IMG/VR virus record: IMGVR_UViG_3300045988_005640
Reading direction: 5' to 3' (one strand)
Source of the DNA: a virus
Taxonomy: Duplodnaviria; Heunggongvirae; Uroviricota; Caudoviricetes
DNA: 64,000 nt
The position numbers were made by a program, and so were the translations under genes. The first letter of the stretch is position 1, and the number at the start of each line of letters is the position of its first letter. This document shows positions 52,549 to 64,000 of the stretch, one piece after another. The notes under the pieces are model-generated. The model was not told the origin of the DNA. It searched no databases and worked only from the letters and a program-made list of their open reading frames with translations.

Positions 52549-52819
52549 AGAAAAGTGGGAGATTTTACCATTAGTCAGTGAAGGAGGTAATGGTTGTGAA
52601 ATGTACATGATACGTGGTCATGTTCCAGAGCCAATTGCACTTGAGATGGTAAACAACTTTACAGATGGTTCTTACAAAGACTTAGGCGAACCAACTGTCA
52701 AGCAACAATGGGTTAAACCTGTACCAGACAGCACAGGTAACTGTAGTGTACTTTATCACGTTGTAGACCCTGCAAAATGCAAATCTGCAATGGCAGTAAC
52801 AAACGTAACTTTTGATTGA
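52541..52819 (+). CDS. Hypothetical protein
   Basis: 92-aa ORF. Confidence 0.3.
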   Translation: MAKEKWEILPLVSEGGNGCEMYMIRGHVPEPIALEMVNNFTDGSYKDLGEPTVKQQWVKPVPDSTGNCSVLYHVVDPAKCKSAMAVTNVTFD

Positions 52820-52830
52820 GAGAGAAAACT

Positions 52831-53712
52831 ATGAAAACATCTATCCGTGTTACAGTTCATTCACCAACTAAAGGAACTCATGAAGAAGAGTTTAACATCA
52901 TCCAATTTCCTTCTGGTGAGATTGGTGGACACTTTTCTCCAGAGTTTGTTGATTTCACTGCTTATGCAGCATCATCCATCAACAATGTGATTATGATTGT
53001 AAAAGGTTATGATAAGGATACATTGTTTGCTGTGGCACTTGCTAAAGAAGCAATTGATGATTTAATTCCTCATGATTATGCTTTAAAGACTGTCATCTTT
53101 TACTACTTACCAAATGCACGTTATGACCGTCACATGTTTAAAGGCGACGCAGCAGCTTTAAAGGTTTTTGCTAAACAGGTAAATGCAATGGGATTTGGTG
53201 CAGTCTGTGCAGTTGACCCTCACAGTTACGTTCCAGATAACCTGTTTAACTGCTTCCAGAGTATTCCTCAAAAGGAGATTGCAGTTCACTACGCAAATGA
53301 CCCACTGATTGATTACTTAGTAGCCCCAGATGCAGGTGCTGCTAAGAAGATTGCAGAGACTGCTAAAGAGGTGGATAAACCATACATCACAATGTCTAAG
53401 GTGCGTAACCTTAAGACTGGTGAAATTACTGGTATGCGAATCCTTGACGATGTTGATTTGACAGATAAAACTGTCATGATTCTGGATGATATTTGTGATG
53501 GAGGTCGAACCTTCATAGAAGCAGCCAAACATCTTCGTGAAGCAGGTGCAAAACGTGTGGAACTCTATGTAACTCATGGTATTTTCTCTAAAGATGTTGA
53601 AAACTTGCTTGACAATGGTATTGACCATATCTACACTACAAACTCTTTAGGGGAAGCTAAAGACCGTGGCTTAACACATTATAGCCAAGTTACTGTAGCA
53701 AACCTTGATTAA
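52831..53712 (+). CDS. Ribose-phosphate pyrophosphokinase-like protein (Prs-like; possible ADP-ribose pyrophosphokinase)
   Basis: PRPP-binding loop VMILDDICDGGRT and VAPDAGAAKKIAE block; ATG at 52831 with GAGAGAG RBS preferred over ORF-track TTG 52816. Confidence 0.6.
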   Translation: MKTSIRVTVHSPTKGTHEEEFNIIQFPSGEIGGHFSPEFVDFTAYAASSINNVIMIVKGYDKDTLFAVALAKEAIDDLIPHDYALKTVIFYYLPNARYDRHMFKGDAAALKVFAKQVNAMGFGAVCAVDPHSYVPDNLFNCFQSIPQKEIAVHYANDPLIDYLVAPDAGAAKKIAETAKEVDKPYITMSKVRNLKTGEITGMRILDDVDLTDKTVMILDDICDGGRTFIEAAKHLREAGAKRVELYVTHGIFSKDVENLLDNGIDHIYTTNSLGEAKDRGLTHYSQVTVANLD

Positions 53713-53757
53713 AACTTTATAGGGGCTTCCAAGCCCCATTTTGAGAGAGATTAAAAG

Positions 53758-55539
53758 ATGACTAAATCACTTTATGCAGTACCAGCAGGTTTAAATGCAG
53801 ATGCTTACAAATCTGGTCATGTTTACCAGTATCCTAGCGCAACAGAGTACTTGATGTTCAATCTGACACCACGTAGCGACAAATGGTTTAACAGCCCCTT
53901 AGCAATTGACGGTGTAGTGGCTTTTGGTATTCAACGTTTTGTTAAAGATTACTTGATAGACCACTGGAATGCCACTTTCTTTGAACGTGATAAAAAAGAA
54001 GCCATTGATGAAATCTTAGAAGTCATGAATGGTGTTCTGGGTAAAGATGCTATCGGTCGAGAGCATTGGGAAGCACTTCACGACTTAGGTTATCTACCAG
54101 TTGAAGTATACGCTGTAGAAGAAGGCACAGTTGTTCCAATGCGTGTCCCGATGATTGTCTTTCAGAACACTGTTTCAGGTTTTCATTGGGTAGCAGGTTA
54201 TCTGGAAGATGCTTTCTCTGCTGAAATTTGGAAGGCTTGTACCATTGCAACTATTGCATTGCATTACAAACGCATCTGTAAGAAGTGGGCTGACCTTACT
54301 TGTGACAATGACTTACATTTACCTTATCAGTGCCATGATTTTGCTATGCGTGGTATGTCCGGCTTTACTGATGACGCATTTAACGCTGTAGGTCACTTAA
54401 CCAGCTTTAAAGGGACTGATAGCTTCCCTGCTGTATACACGGCTAAACGAATCTATGGACAGTCCTACCCAATCTCTGATATTGGTAGTTCTGTACCAGC
54501 CACTGAGCACTCTGTAATGTGTGCAAACATTGCTTGGGAAGGTGGTAATGAGTTGATTGAAGAAGAAAGACGCTTTAAAGGTGAGTTACAAACCTTCCGT
54601 CGTTTCTTAACAGAAACTTACCCAACAGGTATTGCAAGCATTGTTTCAGATACTTATAACTTCTGGAGAACTGTGTCAGAAATCTTACCAGCACTTCGTA
54701 AAGAAATTATGGAACGTGATGGCAAACTGGTAATTCGCCCTGACTCTGGAGACCCTGTACATATTGTCACAGGTTATAAAGCAATCCACTTAGAATGTGC
54801 TAAGAAGGCTTATTACGAGCACCTAAGCAAGCTGGAAGCCAGTGACACAATGTTGAATGCTGTTCTGAACATGAAGCTTGAGAACATCAACTATGGTATT
54901 GCTGGATGGCTACTGTCAGAAGGCTACGAGATGGTTGTTGACAGAGAAGACTTTGAAGTTGCTGATACAGTGATGTTGAAAAATGCTTATATGGTTGGTT
55001 CTGCAAACGTTGTAACACGTCCTGTAGCTGAGATTGATGGAGCTATTAAGACACTGTACAACATCTTTGGGGGAACTATTAACTCTAAAGGCTTTAAAGT
55101 ACTGGATGAGCATATTGGACTTATTTATGGCGACTCTATCACGTTGGAACGTGCAAATGAAATACTGAAGCGTTTGTATGAAATGGGTTTTGCAAGCTCT
55201 AACGTAGTGTTTGGTGTAGGTTCTTACACTTACCAGTACATGACTCGTGACACCTTTGCATTTGCTGTCAAAGCAACCCTTGCAAGCATTGGTGGTAAAG
55301 AGATTATGCTTGCAAAAGACCCTAAAACAGATAGTGGTGTTAAGAAGTCTGCTTTTGGTGGTGTAGCACCTATGTGGGATGGTGAAAATCTGAAAGCTGT
55401 AGATGGCTATGGGTTCCAGAGCTTTGCAGATGCACTTGAACATCCAGCTTGTGCTTTACGTCTAGTCTTTAGTGACTCTGAGCAGTTCGGCTACACAACT
55501 CTTGGTGATATTCGAAATAATATTGACAAGCAGCTTTAA
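53758..55539 (+). CDS. nadV: Nicotinamide phosphoribosyltransferase-like protein (NadV/NAMPT family)
   Basis: 593 aa; N-terminal LYAVPAGLNADAYKSGHVYQYP characteristic of NAMPT-family start; adjacent to Prs-like gene. Confidence 0.7.
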   Translation: MTKSLYAVPAGLNADAYKSGHVYQYPSATEYLMFNLTPRSDKWFNSPLAIDGVVAFGIQRFVKDYLIDHWNATFFERDKKEAIDEILEVMNGVLGKDAIGREHWEALHDLGYLPVEVYAVEEGTVVPMRVPMIVFQNTVSGFHWVAGYLEDAFSAEIWKACTIATIALHYKRICKKWADLTCDNDLHLPYQCHDFAMRGMSGFTDDAFNAVGHLTSFKGTDSFPAVYTAKRIYGQSYPISDIGSSVPATEHSVMCANIAWEGGNELIEEERRFKGELQTFRRFLTETYPTGIASIVSDTYNFWRTVSEILPALRKEIMERDGKLVIRPDSGDPVHIVTGYKAIHLECAKKAYYEHLSKLEASDTMLNAVLNMKLENINYGIAGWLLSEGYEMVVDREDFEVADTVMLKNAYMVGSANVVTRPVAEIDGAIKTLYNIFGGTINSKGFKVLDEHIGLIYGDSITLERANEILKRLYEMGFASSNVVFGVGSYTYQYMTRDTFAFAVKATLASIGGKEIMLAKDPKTDSGVKKSAFGGVAPMWDGENLKAVDGYGFQSFADALEHPACALRLVFSDSEQFGYTTLGDIRNNIDKQL

Positions 55540-61479: not shown

Positions 61480-61506
61480 AGGCTCCTTCGGGAGCCTTTT
61501 TCATTT
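61480..61506 (+). terminator. Intrinsic terminator with UUCG tetraloop
   Basis: aggctcc-ttcg-ggagcct followed by ttttt. Confidence 0.65.
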
Positions 61507-62299: not shown

Positions 62300-62623
62300 A
62301 TGCAGATTAACGGAAGAGACTTTGTAGCTGTTTACTACGAGAAAGGTAAAGAAGTTGGCGTAGCACAAGTATCTTATGGCAATGGTAAGTGGCTATATGG
62401 AACAATCGCAATGGTAGGAACAAGAAGTGATACAAAAACTTTTAAAGATTGTGTTGACCTTCTTGAAGAATCCATTCAGAATCATTGGTGTCTGATATGG
62501 ATGACTGACAACGAAGTGATAGAACGCTTCAAAAAGATTGATATCAACATTGATAGTATTGAGCATGTTGATTTATATGAGCTAACTGAGAAGGTAAACT
62601 ATGAAAGCTCTAGAAATAATTGA
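62300..62623 (+). CDS. Hypothetical protein
   Basis: 107-aa ORF. Confidence 0.3.
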   Translation: MQINGRDFVAVYYEKGKEVGVAQVSYGNGKWLYGTIAMVGTRSDTKTFKDCVDLLEESIQNHWCLIWMTDNEVIERFKKIDINIDSIEHVDLYELTEKVNYESSRNN

Positions 62624-62828
62624 CAAAGATACTGGAGAAGTCGTATCTGCATGTGTTTTCATGAGCGATGACACAGTAATACCGTTTTACAATCTTGATG
62701 GTTTTAGTTTTACAGGTATAACTCCAGAAGAATACTTTGAAGACCTTACCTTTGCCAGAATTTCTATAGATACATTCTATAAATGCTTCTATGATGAAGG
62801 TAAAGAATTACGAGAAACTGAACTATAA
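62601..62828 (+). CDS. Hypothetical protein
   Basis: 75-aa ORF. Confidence 0.3.
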   Translation: MKALEIIDKDTGEVVSACVFMSDDTVIPFYNLDGFSFTGITPEEYFEDLTFARISIDTFYKCFYDEGKELRETEL

Positions 62829-62840
62829 GGTGTACGTTAT

Positions 62841-63041
62841 ATGGCTGACTTCTGCAAAGACTGTTCTATTGAAATGTTTGGACGTGATACAGGTGACTTA
62901 AAAGGTCTTATCACTGAAGATGACTTTAAAGCTGGCTATGCAATGCCAGTAATCTGTGAAGGTTGTGGATGTATCTGGGTAGACCATGAGGGGCAACGTG
63001 TAAAACCTTCAGAAGATAAAGAATCTTGGGAGAGATGCTAA
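62841..63041 (+). CDS. Small zinc-ribbon protein
   Basis: 66 aa with CKDC...CEGCGC Cys pairs; directly upstream of macro-domain gene. Confidence 0.3.
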   Translation: MADFCKDCSIEMFGRDTGDLKGLITEDDFKAGYAMPVICEGCGCIWVDHEGQRVKPSEDKESWERC

Positions 63042-63827
63042 ATGGGTATTGTAAAAATCATCAATGGTGATATCTTTGCTGCATTTGATAAAGGTAAGTT
63101 TGACATCATTGGTCATGGTTGTAACTGCATGAACCTAATGGGCGCAGGTATCGCTGACAAGATTTCTAAACTTTACCCAAAAGCATATGAGACCGATACA
63201 GAAGTTTATCTATATGCAGGTGGTATAGGACACAAACCCTGTGAGAATTTACTAGGTAATTTCTCTGTAGCACGCTTAAAACAAGGTCGTATAGCTAACC
63301 TTTACACTCAGCTTAAGACTGGTAAAGATGCCCGATACAGTGCTTTAGAGTCATCTTTGAAACAGCTTAACAGATACTGTGAAGTTAATCAGTTGAAGAA
63401 AGTTGGTTTACCTATGATTGGTGCAGGTATCGGTGGACTTGACCCTCAAGCCATCACAGTTATCATCAATCAGGTGATGAAGAGTGTAGATGTTTATCTG
63501 TATGTCTATGAAGGCGAGATGTACCACAAGTTACGCTCAGGTTGGAAGAACTACTGTGAACCAGAATACTTTGCAGGTGTAGCAGTGTTCACAGATAACG
63601 CAGTTACCCTCTTCAGACGAAGAAAAGGTAAGATACATCAAAGTAACCCTCCGGTTGAAAAGATGTCTCTAAGTAACGCTCTAGTTACCCACCTGTCAAA
63701 GAGCAATCACAGAATTGCTGTAACATTTGGTAGTGATGCAGAAGCTTATATCTATGCAAGAACTGATGAGGATATCGAGGCAATCTTCTCTTCACCAGAA
63801 GTTACCTTCTTAGACGCAAAGAACTAA
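63042..63827 (+). CDS. Macro-domain-like protein (ADP-ribose binding/processing fold)
   Basis: INGDIF...DIIGHGCNCMNLMGAGIADKI aligns by eye with macro-domain GDIT...VNAAN..GGGV..AI block; later VGLPMIGAGIGGLDPQ aligns with AFPxISTGxYGxP block; extra about 100-aa C-terminal region. Confidence 0.5.
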   Translation: MGIVKIINGDIFAAFDKGKFDIIGHGCNCMNLMGAGIADKISKLYPKAYETDTEVYLYAGGIGHKPCENLLGNFSVARLKQGRIANLYTQLKTGKDARYSALESSLKQLNRYCEVNQLKKVGLPMIGAGIGGLDPQAITVIINQVMKSVDVYLYVYEGEMYHKLRSGWKNYCEPEYFAGVAVFTDNAVTLFRRRKGKIHQSNPPVEKMSLSNALVTHLSKSNHRIAVTFGSDAEAYIYARTDEDIEAIFSSPEVTFLDAKN

Positions 63828-63899
63828 GAAACTCTGTAGTATATTCACAATAGCCTAAGCCTTTCTTATCTGGTAAATTTTTCAGGTAAGGAGGGCTTT

Positions 63900-63922
63900 T
63901 TCATTTTAGAATTGTGCAGGTA
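63900..63922 (+). repeat. Direct repeat copy A (ttcattttagaattgtgcaggta)
   Basis: 23-nt element repeated 73 nt downstream with 3 mismatches; contains TGTGCAGGTA. Confidence 0.7.
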
Positions 63923-63972: not shown

Positions 63973-63995
63973 TTCATTTTCAAACTGTGCAGGTA
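63973..63995 (+). repeat. Direct repeat copy B (ttcattttcaaactgtgcaggta)
   Basis: Second copy of 23-nt element at window end. Confidence 0.7.
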
Positions 63996-64000
63996 ATCTC

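Follow-up and report, generated by a model that had tools for sequence, protein, structure and literature searches.

The Gln-type macro domain of a two-domain protein from a Felix O1-like phage resembles NARP1-linked ADP-ribose-1''-phosphate phosphatases

The presence of a macro-domain gene in a phage that also carries genes for NAD+ rebuilding raises the question of which ADP-ribose (ADPR) derivative its product acts on and what the phage would gain from this. Macro domains are common in myoviruses (41%; PMC9503650), and the gene studied here lies in a 64,000-nucleotide stretch of viral DNA (IMG/VR record IMGVR_UViG_3300045988_005640), which we call the window. We found that the window comes from a Felix O1-like phage, with 94 to 96% nucleotide identity in this region to wV8 and some 200 further Felixounavirus records. 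A first-pass annotation had called the open reading frame (ORF) at 63042-63827 macro-domain-like, and we confirmed this: the predicted protein scores above the Pfam Macro cutoff and matches the PHROG 335 profile over its full length (5.5e-113). It is 100% identical to the protein of Felixounavirus LF82P5 and 91 to 97% identical to those of other Felixounaviruses. All Felix O1-like phages have the gene, which public records already list as "phosphatase," "macro domain protein," or "O-acetyl-ADP-ribose deacetylase," and it is no new find in itself. What is new, or lacks a report in the literature that we searched, is the two-domain architecture with an orphan domain restricted to Ounavirinae, an allele swap in the macro gene of a Felixounavirus, the assignment of the protein to the Gln-type Tk.4/Adpp group and not to DarG, and the proposal of a Felix O1-like NARP1-AP pathway with a distantly encoded phosphatase.

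Table 1. The macro gene, its domains, and neighboring features (positions in the window)
Feature	Position	Strand	Remarks
Adps-like (Prs-like) NARP1 gene	52816..53712	+	Pfam Pribosyltran and Pribosyl_synth; candidate functional partner
Namat-like (NAMPT/NadV-like) NARP1 gene	53758..55539	+	Pfam NAPRTase (6.8e-35) and NAMPT_N; candidate functional partner
Upstream intrinsic terminator	61480..61497	+	Also annotated in wV8
Zn-ribbon gene	62841..63041	+	66 aa, acidic (pI 4.4); PHROG 2210; stop codon abuts macro start codon
Two-domain macro protein CDS	63042..63827	+	261-aa ORF; ortholog of wV8 gp012 and of Bas63 gene 95 ("putative phosphatase")
N-terminal macro domain, aa 1-157	63042..63512	+	Gln-type active site: H25, N28, Q90
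Predicted ADP-ribose/phosphate loops			MGAGIA, aa 33-38; IGAGIGG, aa 126-132
C-terminal domain, aa 158-261 (104 aa)	63513..63824	+	Beta-rich orphan fold; lineage-specific, fast-evolving
Intrinsic terminator	63857..63898	+	17-bp stem, then T-run; 30 nt past macro stop; annotated likewise in wV8

The N-terminal part of the protein matched Pfam Macro (PF01661) over aa 25 to 138 with 30.5 bits against a gathering cutoff of 22, and the homologs P0009, P0013, and P0026 also scored above the cutoff. The predicted structure is a three-layer alpha/beta macro fold with both Gly-rich ADP-ribose/phosphate loops, and the nearest solved structures are those of DarG, BT1257/SCO6735, TARG1, and Poa1p. An HMM search and a structure prediction with superposition were the checks that the first-pass annotation had suggested, and both returned a macro domain. 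Its "variant signature" fared differently. The motifs are present, but they are no oddity of this gene; they are standard for PHROG 335, the whole phage family (including T4 Tk.4), which occurs in about 2,850 deposited phage genomes. We found the full-length two-domain form in 258 phage records, and all full-length matches examined were from Ounavirinae. Because the remaining approximately 2,600 records, from T-even, rV5-like, and Pakpunavirus phages among others, hold single-domain relatives such as Tk.4 with the same motifs, the signature is the ordinary one of the family.

The invariant columns of the family are H25, G26, N28, C29, M33, G36, A38, N86, L87, T89, Q90, P124, G127, and G129. 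Q90, found in 31 of 31 family members, replaces the catalytic Lys of other macro domains. Three independent alignments (one HMM against the PDB and two made with MAFFT) placed it opposite K84 of TARG1, K80 of Thermus aquaticus DarG, and K78 of PhiKZ AdfM. Human TARG1 (OARD1) uses a Lys84/Asp125 dyad, whereas the window protein has Q90 and G131 at these positions. Gln stands at the catalytic-Lys position in Streptomyces coelicolor SCO6735 as well, where NMIGQ aligned with NLYTQ of the window protein, and in Adpp, a phage ADPR-1''-phosphate phosphatase. Previous work demonstrated that Gln85 of SCO6735, the equivalent of Q90, is essential for activity and that SCO6735 outpaces DarG and TARG1 in stripping thymidine-linked ADP-ribose from DNA; Glu/Asp-linked protein ADP-ribose is also a substrate (PMC9411070). 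Because Gln thus has experimental precedent at this position, we infer that the macro protein is an active enzyme that would use an activated water and not a Lys nucleophile. The bond that it hydrolyzes would be that to the C1'' substituent of ADP-ribose.

A macro domain can also bind without cleaving, and some macrodomains are readers, not enzymes. Phages use sponges against Thoeris signals. According to such a model, the protein would be a noncatalytic binder or sponge for ADP-ribose-derived immune signals (Thoeris cyclic ADPR isomers) or a sensor for its C-terminal domain. The missing classical Lys agrees with this idea. However, H25, N28, and Q90 are invariant and match the residues of SCO6735 catalysis, Adpp is an enzyme with the same Gln, and strong purifying selection acts on the macro domain. 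We regard a pure binder as very improbable.

By motif, we sorted CHARACTERISED enzymes into three groups. The first group has HGCNC, NLYTQ with a short loop, and IGAGIGG and contains the window family, Tk.4, and the other single-domain relatives. The second group, with H(Q/V/I)xN(C/D), xxxGQ, and IGCGLAGG, contains the NARP1-linked Adpp group and the bacterial SCO6735 and BT1257, and its loop after the Gln is 3 to 7 residues longer than that of the window family. DarG and AdfM form the third group, with NTVN, FPTK, and PPLGxGNGG. In BLASTP comparisons, the window macro domain scored 84 bits with Tk.4-like proteins, 52 to 75 with the Adpp group, 46 with TARG1, 35 to 42 with DarG, 32 with SCO6735, and 25 with AdfM. 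In neighbor-joining trees, the two-domain Ounavirinae proteins formed one clade (78 to 84% bootstrap); deep nodes had less than 50% bootstrap and were left uninterpreted. Neither the net charge nor the pI of macro domains separated nucleic acid from small-molecule enzymes, since AdfM is acidic and all groups are mixed.

Annotations of T4 Tk.4 and of related proteins from T-even, rV5-like, and other large myoviruses read "A1pp phosphatase motif" or "Poa1p-like." Tk.4 shares with the window protein HGCNC, NLYTQ with the short loop, and IGAGIG (35% identity; E = 2e-24), and its gene, like the window gene, is an accessory one in an early or nonstructural region. Unlike the window protein, Tk.4 has a single domain (155 aa), and the genomes of this group mostly lack NARP1, as judged from the distribution of Namat. 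Poa1p of yeast, a phosphatase of a cellular tRNA-splicing by-product, is single-domain too, as is TARG1. By motif and score, the window protein sits with these phage "Poa1p-like" Gln-type macro domains, and among experimentally characterized proteins the NARP1-linked Adpp group is nearest to it in sequence. We found nothing usable in the literature on the biochemistry of Tk.4 or the window protein or on mutated residues of Adpp.

The resemblance to DarG suggests another substrate. The macro domain might free thymidine of ADP-ribose in phage single-stranded DNA and so counter DarT2, like DarG2, AdfM, and SCO6735. The structural class and the activity of SCO6735 on DNA are consistent with this, and AdfM, a DarG2-like phage macro protein that counters DarT2, is a precedent (PMC13309987). 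The DarTG2 resistance that T4 retains, unexplained, when it lacks both adfA and adfN is in keeping with this reading too (PMC11825919). However, we found that DarG and AdfM form a clade (99 to 100% bootstrap) that leaves out the window protein. In PDB searches, AdfM matched DarG only (9e-25, 3e-19, and 9e-18), whereas the matches of the window protein and of the Adpp of Vibrio phage Gary were weak and diffuse, with TARG1 on top in both; the window protein matched DarG at 1e-3, compared with 1e-18 to 1e-25 for AdfM. Its NCBIfam DarG score was 46.8 against an equivalog cutoff of 250, and the macro part alone aligned. Taken together, the clade, the weak PDB match, and the NCBIfam score indicate that the window protein is not a DarG/AdfM ortholog, and we rejected this assignment, also for want of the catalytic Lys. 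The DarG2 macrodomain and chimallivirus AdfM (PhiKZ gp104) are 22 to 27% identical to the window protein and have Lys where all 31 family members have Gln. SCO6735, a Gln-type ALC1-like macrodomain like BT1257, is 24% identical (32 bits), bacterial, and single-domain, acts on dT-ADPr DNA and Glu/Asp-ADPr proteins, and carries a GQ/IGCGLAGG signature that matches Adpp rather than the window protein. The mobile loop of SCO6735 and BT1257 exceeds that of DarG and TARG1 by about five residues, an insertion that the Adpp group also carries. The window protein has the DarG/TARG1 length and is without the longer Lys-bearing loop that is the proposed DNA-handling element of SCO6735. We found no literature on DarTG versus Felix O1-like phages. 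We consider DNA de-ADP-ribosylation against DarT2 rather unlikely for this protein, although it is the main rival of the reading that we favor below.

SCO6735 has the Adpp signature yet de-ADP-ribosylates DNA. The Gln-type site therefore does not give the substrate by itself; it evidently supports both phosphatase and DNA de-ADP-ribosylation chemistry, and the substrate of the macro protein is not decidable from sequence alone. Previous work demonstrated that the RES-type defense proteins aRES cleave NAD+ to ADPR-1''-P, which NARP1 cannot use (Osterman et al., bioRxiv 10.64898/2026.01.28.702374). In about 15% of NARP1 phages, the operon includes the macro-domain phosphatase Adpp, which restores ADPR; purified Adpp converts ADPR-1P to ADPR, and Adpp is required for NARP1 to beat aRES (bioRxiv 10.64898/2026.01.28.702374). 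The Adpp census reached two genes to each side of NARP1, and no Felixounavirus appears in its table (bioRxiv 10.64898/2026.01.28.702374). Two of the functions that the first-pass annotation had offered with hedges thus have published phage precedents, in AdfM (PMC13309987) and in Adpp (bioRxiv 10.64898/2026.01.28.702374).

Adpp of Vibrio phage Gary and of other phages resembles the window protein in being a phage macro domain with His, Asn-Cys, Gln, and an IGxGxxGG loop and in coming from genomes that encode Adps and Namat. We found that His25, Asn28, Cys29, and Gln90 are common to the window protein and the Adpp group (27 to 36% identity; 52 to 75 bits). One NARP1-linked macro protein of an Acinetobacter phage has exactly HGCNC and YTQ. 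In contrast, Adpp are single-domain proteins of approximately 150 to 170 aa encoded within two genes of NARP1, and most have HQxNC, YGQ, and a loop 3 to 7 residues longer, whereas the window protein has HGCNC, YTQ, a short loop, and an extra 104-aa domain.

The window gene lies farther from NARP1. The first-pass annotation had pointed to a Prs-like/NadV-like pair upstream, and we identified this pair as Adps and Namat of NARP1. Their orthologs in Bas63, which is a Felixounavirus, are genes 79 and 80 and have been demonstrated to be NARP1; Namat is near-identical across Felixounaviruses. From the end of Namat to the macro gene, 7.5 kb on the same strand, there are about ten genes and two terminators. 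The same-strand block runs Adps, Namat, one small ORF, rIIA, rIIB, a lysin-like gene, and PNK and onward to the macro gene, which is the last gene of a unit bounded by the two terminators of Table 1 and preceded in it by the spanins, three small ORFs, and the Zn-ribbon gene. The order Adps-Namat-rIIA-rIIB-PNK-spanin-macro is also found in Erwinia Kolesnikvirus, and the part from rIIB to the macro gene recurs in two further Ounavirinae-like lineages from metagenomes, with contigs that stop short of NARP1.

We found Namat (at 60% identity or more) in 261 records of the phage database and the full-length macro protein in 258, essentially 1:1, although within Ounavirinae this co-occurrence is inseparable from shared ancestry. 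Among enterobacterial phages, the macro clade was far more widespread than NARP1, with 1,000 versus 192 Escherichia phage records and 297 versus 130 Salmonella phage records. At least about 800 Escherichia phage records have same-signature relatives, Tk.4 among them, but no Namat, and the macro clade therefore shows no general tie to NARP1. We did not find NARP1 next to the single-domain relatives in the four that we checked. Next to the Ounavirinae clade branches the macro protein P0026, which carries a fused Pfam cREC_REC domain (30.8 bits; cutoff, 27). Opening of ADPr-1'',2''-cyclic phosphate is the predicted activity of this domain (PMC9503650), and the fusion would therefore join two consecutive steps that end in ADPR.

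Our favored reading, which we hold as possible more than probable, is that the macro protein is an Adpp-like ADPR-1''-P phosphatase that serves NARP1 from a distance. We prefer ADPR-1''-P as the substrate because the nearest characterized relatives are Adpp, the subfamily carries NARP1 in the same gene block, and the sister lineage has the cyclic-phosphate-opening fusion. According to this model, the ADP-ribose moiety would be held between the MGAGIA and IGAGIGG loops, Gln90 would position the distal ribose, and an activated water would release the C1'' substituent. ADPR-1''-P would become ADPR, a substrate of the phage's own NARP1 enzymes, so that NAD+ rebuilding could continue. The ADPR-1''-P would arise when aRES proteins phosphorolyze NAD+; alternatively, it might come from the NARP1 intermediate ADPR-PP decaying via ADPR-cyclic-phosphate, a decay product that has been detected in Bas63 infections. 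PhageMaP scores of Bas63 gene 95 (0.6 to 1.1) indicate only that the phage can do without this gene on the laboratory hosts used, and the Bas63 NARP1 genes are likewise dispensable there. This fits a conditional counterdefense role. We concluded that the window macro gene is a conserved, expressed-looking, dispensable accessory gene and that its product is most likely a counterdefense enzyme that takes phosphate or another group off ADP-ribose; the product of this removal may perhaps feed the NAD+-rebuilding pathway of the phage. Against an Adpp-like role, the macro gene is outside the NARP1 operon, and the protein has G26 and not Q, T89 and not G, and, following the Gln, a loop 3 to 7 residues shorter than in most Adpp.

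The PNK gene, 2 kb upstream of the macro gene in a synteny kept in four Ounavirinae lineages, points to a broader set of substrates. The macro protein might reverse another ADP-ribose adduct: Glu/Asp-ADP-ribose on protein, RNA ends or bases, O-acetyl-ADP-ribose, or, with PNK, ADPr by-products of RNA repair. TARG1 was the top solved-structure match by sequence (4e-17 with the family profile), and both TARG1 and SCO6735 hydrolyze Glu/Asp-linked protein ADP-ribose. The T-even relatives lie among early RNA-related genes (vs and regB) in genomes that, as noted above, mostly lack NARP1, and the processing of RNA-repair by-products and small ADPr derivatives has been suggested as a role of viral macro domains (PMC9503650). 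However, the Felixounavirus records that we viewed, a nonexhaustive survey of annotations, list no phage ADP-ribosyltransferase, RNA ligase, or Tpt1/KptA. The context provides no link specific to any one substrate, and the idea is too broad as a single hypothesis. We judge a role of this kind to be unlikely.

We also looked at the C-terminal extension, which the first-pass annotation had put at about 100 aa and which we found to be a 104-aa domain (aa 158 to 261). It is confined to Ounavirinae, evolves 5 to 10 times faster than the macro domain, and has diverged past recognition between genera. In one metagenomic Felixounavirus, the domain is a swapped allele in a backbone that is otherwise 96% identical. 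We considered the 64%-identity allele class of Mooglevirus as a second swap and rejected it, because the divergence there is even across the whole region. We also rejected a conserved basic DNA-binding module, because the net charge of homologs ranges from -5 to +6. The domain has no invariant polar residues and is therefore presumed noncatalytic. We concluded that it is a fast-evolving, lineage-specific add-on and probably a protein interaction module.

This domain bears on the choice of substrate. A small-molecule phosphatase needs no extra hypervariable domain (Gary Adpp has 158 aa), and the allele swap is a better fit to an arms race with a protein than to metabolite cleanup; both points tell against the Adpp-like role. 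The arms-race behavior agrees with action against DarT2, in which case the variable domain might bind DarT much as the second domain of DarG does. However, we found no likeness of the domain to the C-terminal DarT-binding domain of DarG (7omu), to which it is unrelated, and its charge is not consistently basic. Hydrolysis and binding could also be combined in a bifunctional, antitoxin-like counterdefense factor convergent with DarG, in which the macro domain would destroy the product of a defense enzyme, either ADPR-1''-P from aRES or DNA ADP-ribosylated by DarT2, and the C-terminal domain would block the enzyme itself. Such a factor would explain the 5- to 10-fold rate, the loss of recognizability between genera, and the allele swap. 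We consider it improbable.

If gene 95 is a distant Adpp, the published census of NARP1 with a phosphatase is an undercount, since it spanned two genes around NARP1, and Felix O1-like phages would have a built-in weapon against RES-type NAD+ phosphorylases. Should DNA be the substrate of the protein instead, the Felix O1-like group would gain its first anti-DarT2 factor, and T4 Tk.4 would become a candidate for the anti-DarTG2 factor still missing in T-even phages. In both cases, a family with members in about 2,850 deposited phage genomes would acquire a function. One Gln-type signature is common to a bacterial DNA de-ADP-ribosylase (SCO6735) and a phage phosphatase (Adpp). Felix O1-like phages are in use for typing and biocontrol of Salmonella and Escherichia coli, and NARP1 was discovered in one such phage, Bas63, a model with knockout tools available.

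The first-pass annotation had also placed a Zn-ribbon minigene next to the macro gene. It does lie directly upstream, and it has a dN of 0 against two Felixounaviruses. It is restricted to Felixounavirus and Mooglevirus. We rejected it as an obligate partner, because it is missing from Ounavirinae lineages (Kolesnikvirus, L003, and L004) that keep the macro gene. In the L003 lineage, an unrelated CxxC minigene occupies its place.

We compared the macro gene region of the window with that of L002, a metagenomic Felixounavirus contig. The two are 95.7% identical at the nucleotide level across the 6.1 kb they have in common, and nine L002 proteins encoded upstream of the macro gene are 93 to 100% identical to their window counterparts. 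In contrast, the macro gene products share only 41% identity. Judged from sequence, this high upstream identity combined with the loss of similarity inside the macro gene indicates that the difference is an allele replacement confined to one locus. The divergent L002 allele (P0009) represents 96 member sequences.

Features of the macro gene region and of related loci (L002, L009, L012, and L013 are comparison loci)
Feature	Location	Strand	Description
NARP1 pair	window 52816-55539		complete (Adps-like and Namat-like); orthologues of Bas63 genes 79-80
Two small ORFs	window 62300-62828		107 and 75 aa; quickly evolving; just 5' of Zn-ribbon and macro genes
Zn-ribbon gene	window 62841-63041		66 aa; CxxC...CxxCxC; PHROG 2210
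Similarity breakpoint	window 63042-63184 vs L002:6001-6780		identity ends ~140 nt inside macro gene
23-nt direct repeat, two copies	window 63900-63922 and 63973-63995		TTCATTTTnnAAyTGTGCAGGTA
T4 Tk.4	T4 genome NC_000866.4 60922-61389 (L013:4923-5390)	minus	single-domain family member
P0026	L012:1250-2269		339 aa; TQ-type macro domain fused to Pfam cREC_REC
Genes downstream of P0024	L009:6252-9820		87-kb phage-like contig; P0024 is a single-domain macro relative

The NARP1 pair (NAD+ rebuilding) heads a same-strand block that the macro gene closes. We found that the stop codon of the Zn-ribbon gene abuts the macro start codon. This gene, which encodes an acidic protein (pI 4.4), is limited to Felixounavirus and Mooglevirus and has zero non-synonymous changes relative to two other Felixounaviruses. 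As for the two small ORFs, the 75-aa protein is 35% identical to its Mooglevirus counterpart, compared with 58 to 80% for the adjoining proteins, and the 107-aa ORF has a dN/dS of 0.27 (versus wV8). Because of its position, the label "tail assembly protein" given to the 107-aa ORF in one record looks like a mis-annotation.

Among relatives, Tk.4 is 35% identical to the window macro protein, and both contain the HGCNC and NLYTQ motifs. T4 lacking adfA and adfN reportedly keeps full DarTG2 resistance (PMC11825919), which makes Tk.4, on sequence grounds, an obvious candidate for the factor behind the remaining resistance. In P0026, the fusion partner is a predicted cyclic-phosphate-processing receiver domain; with that predicted role, the protein would place two consecutive steps of ADPr-cyclic-phosphate breakdown on one polypeptide. 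Second 3' of P0024 is a gene for a reverse transcriptase (RVT_1), and third is one for an HATPase_c-like protein of 875 aa, a pair that is unusual for a phage early region.

We compared PDB entries 5e3b and 2afc with Adpp sequences. SCO6735 and BT1257 have exactly the Adpp-group signature, with IGCGLAGG and with xxxGQ followed by a long loop. Adpp of Vibrio phage Gary is much nearer to SCO6735 than to the yeast phosphatase Poa1p (phmmer, 7e-7 versus 0.79). SCO6735 is a bacterial thymidine-ADPr DNA hydrolase, and the Adpp group consists of phage ADPR-1''-P phosphatases. The available portions of the papers on the two enzymes draw no connection between them.

Just 3' of the terminator, the direct repeat copies lie 73 nt apart, and the window ends at 64000, cutting off the array. 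The site matches a wV8 region in which annotated DR repeats precede successive small ORFs. By analogy with that arrangement, the repeats might serve a regulatory function or act as promoters specific to the phage.
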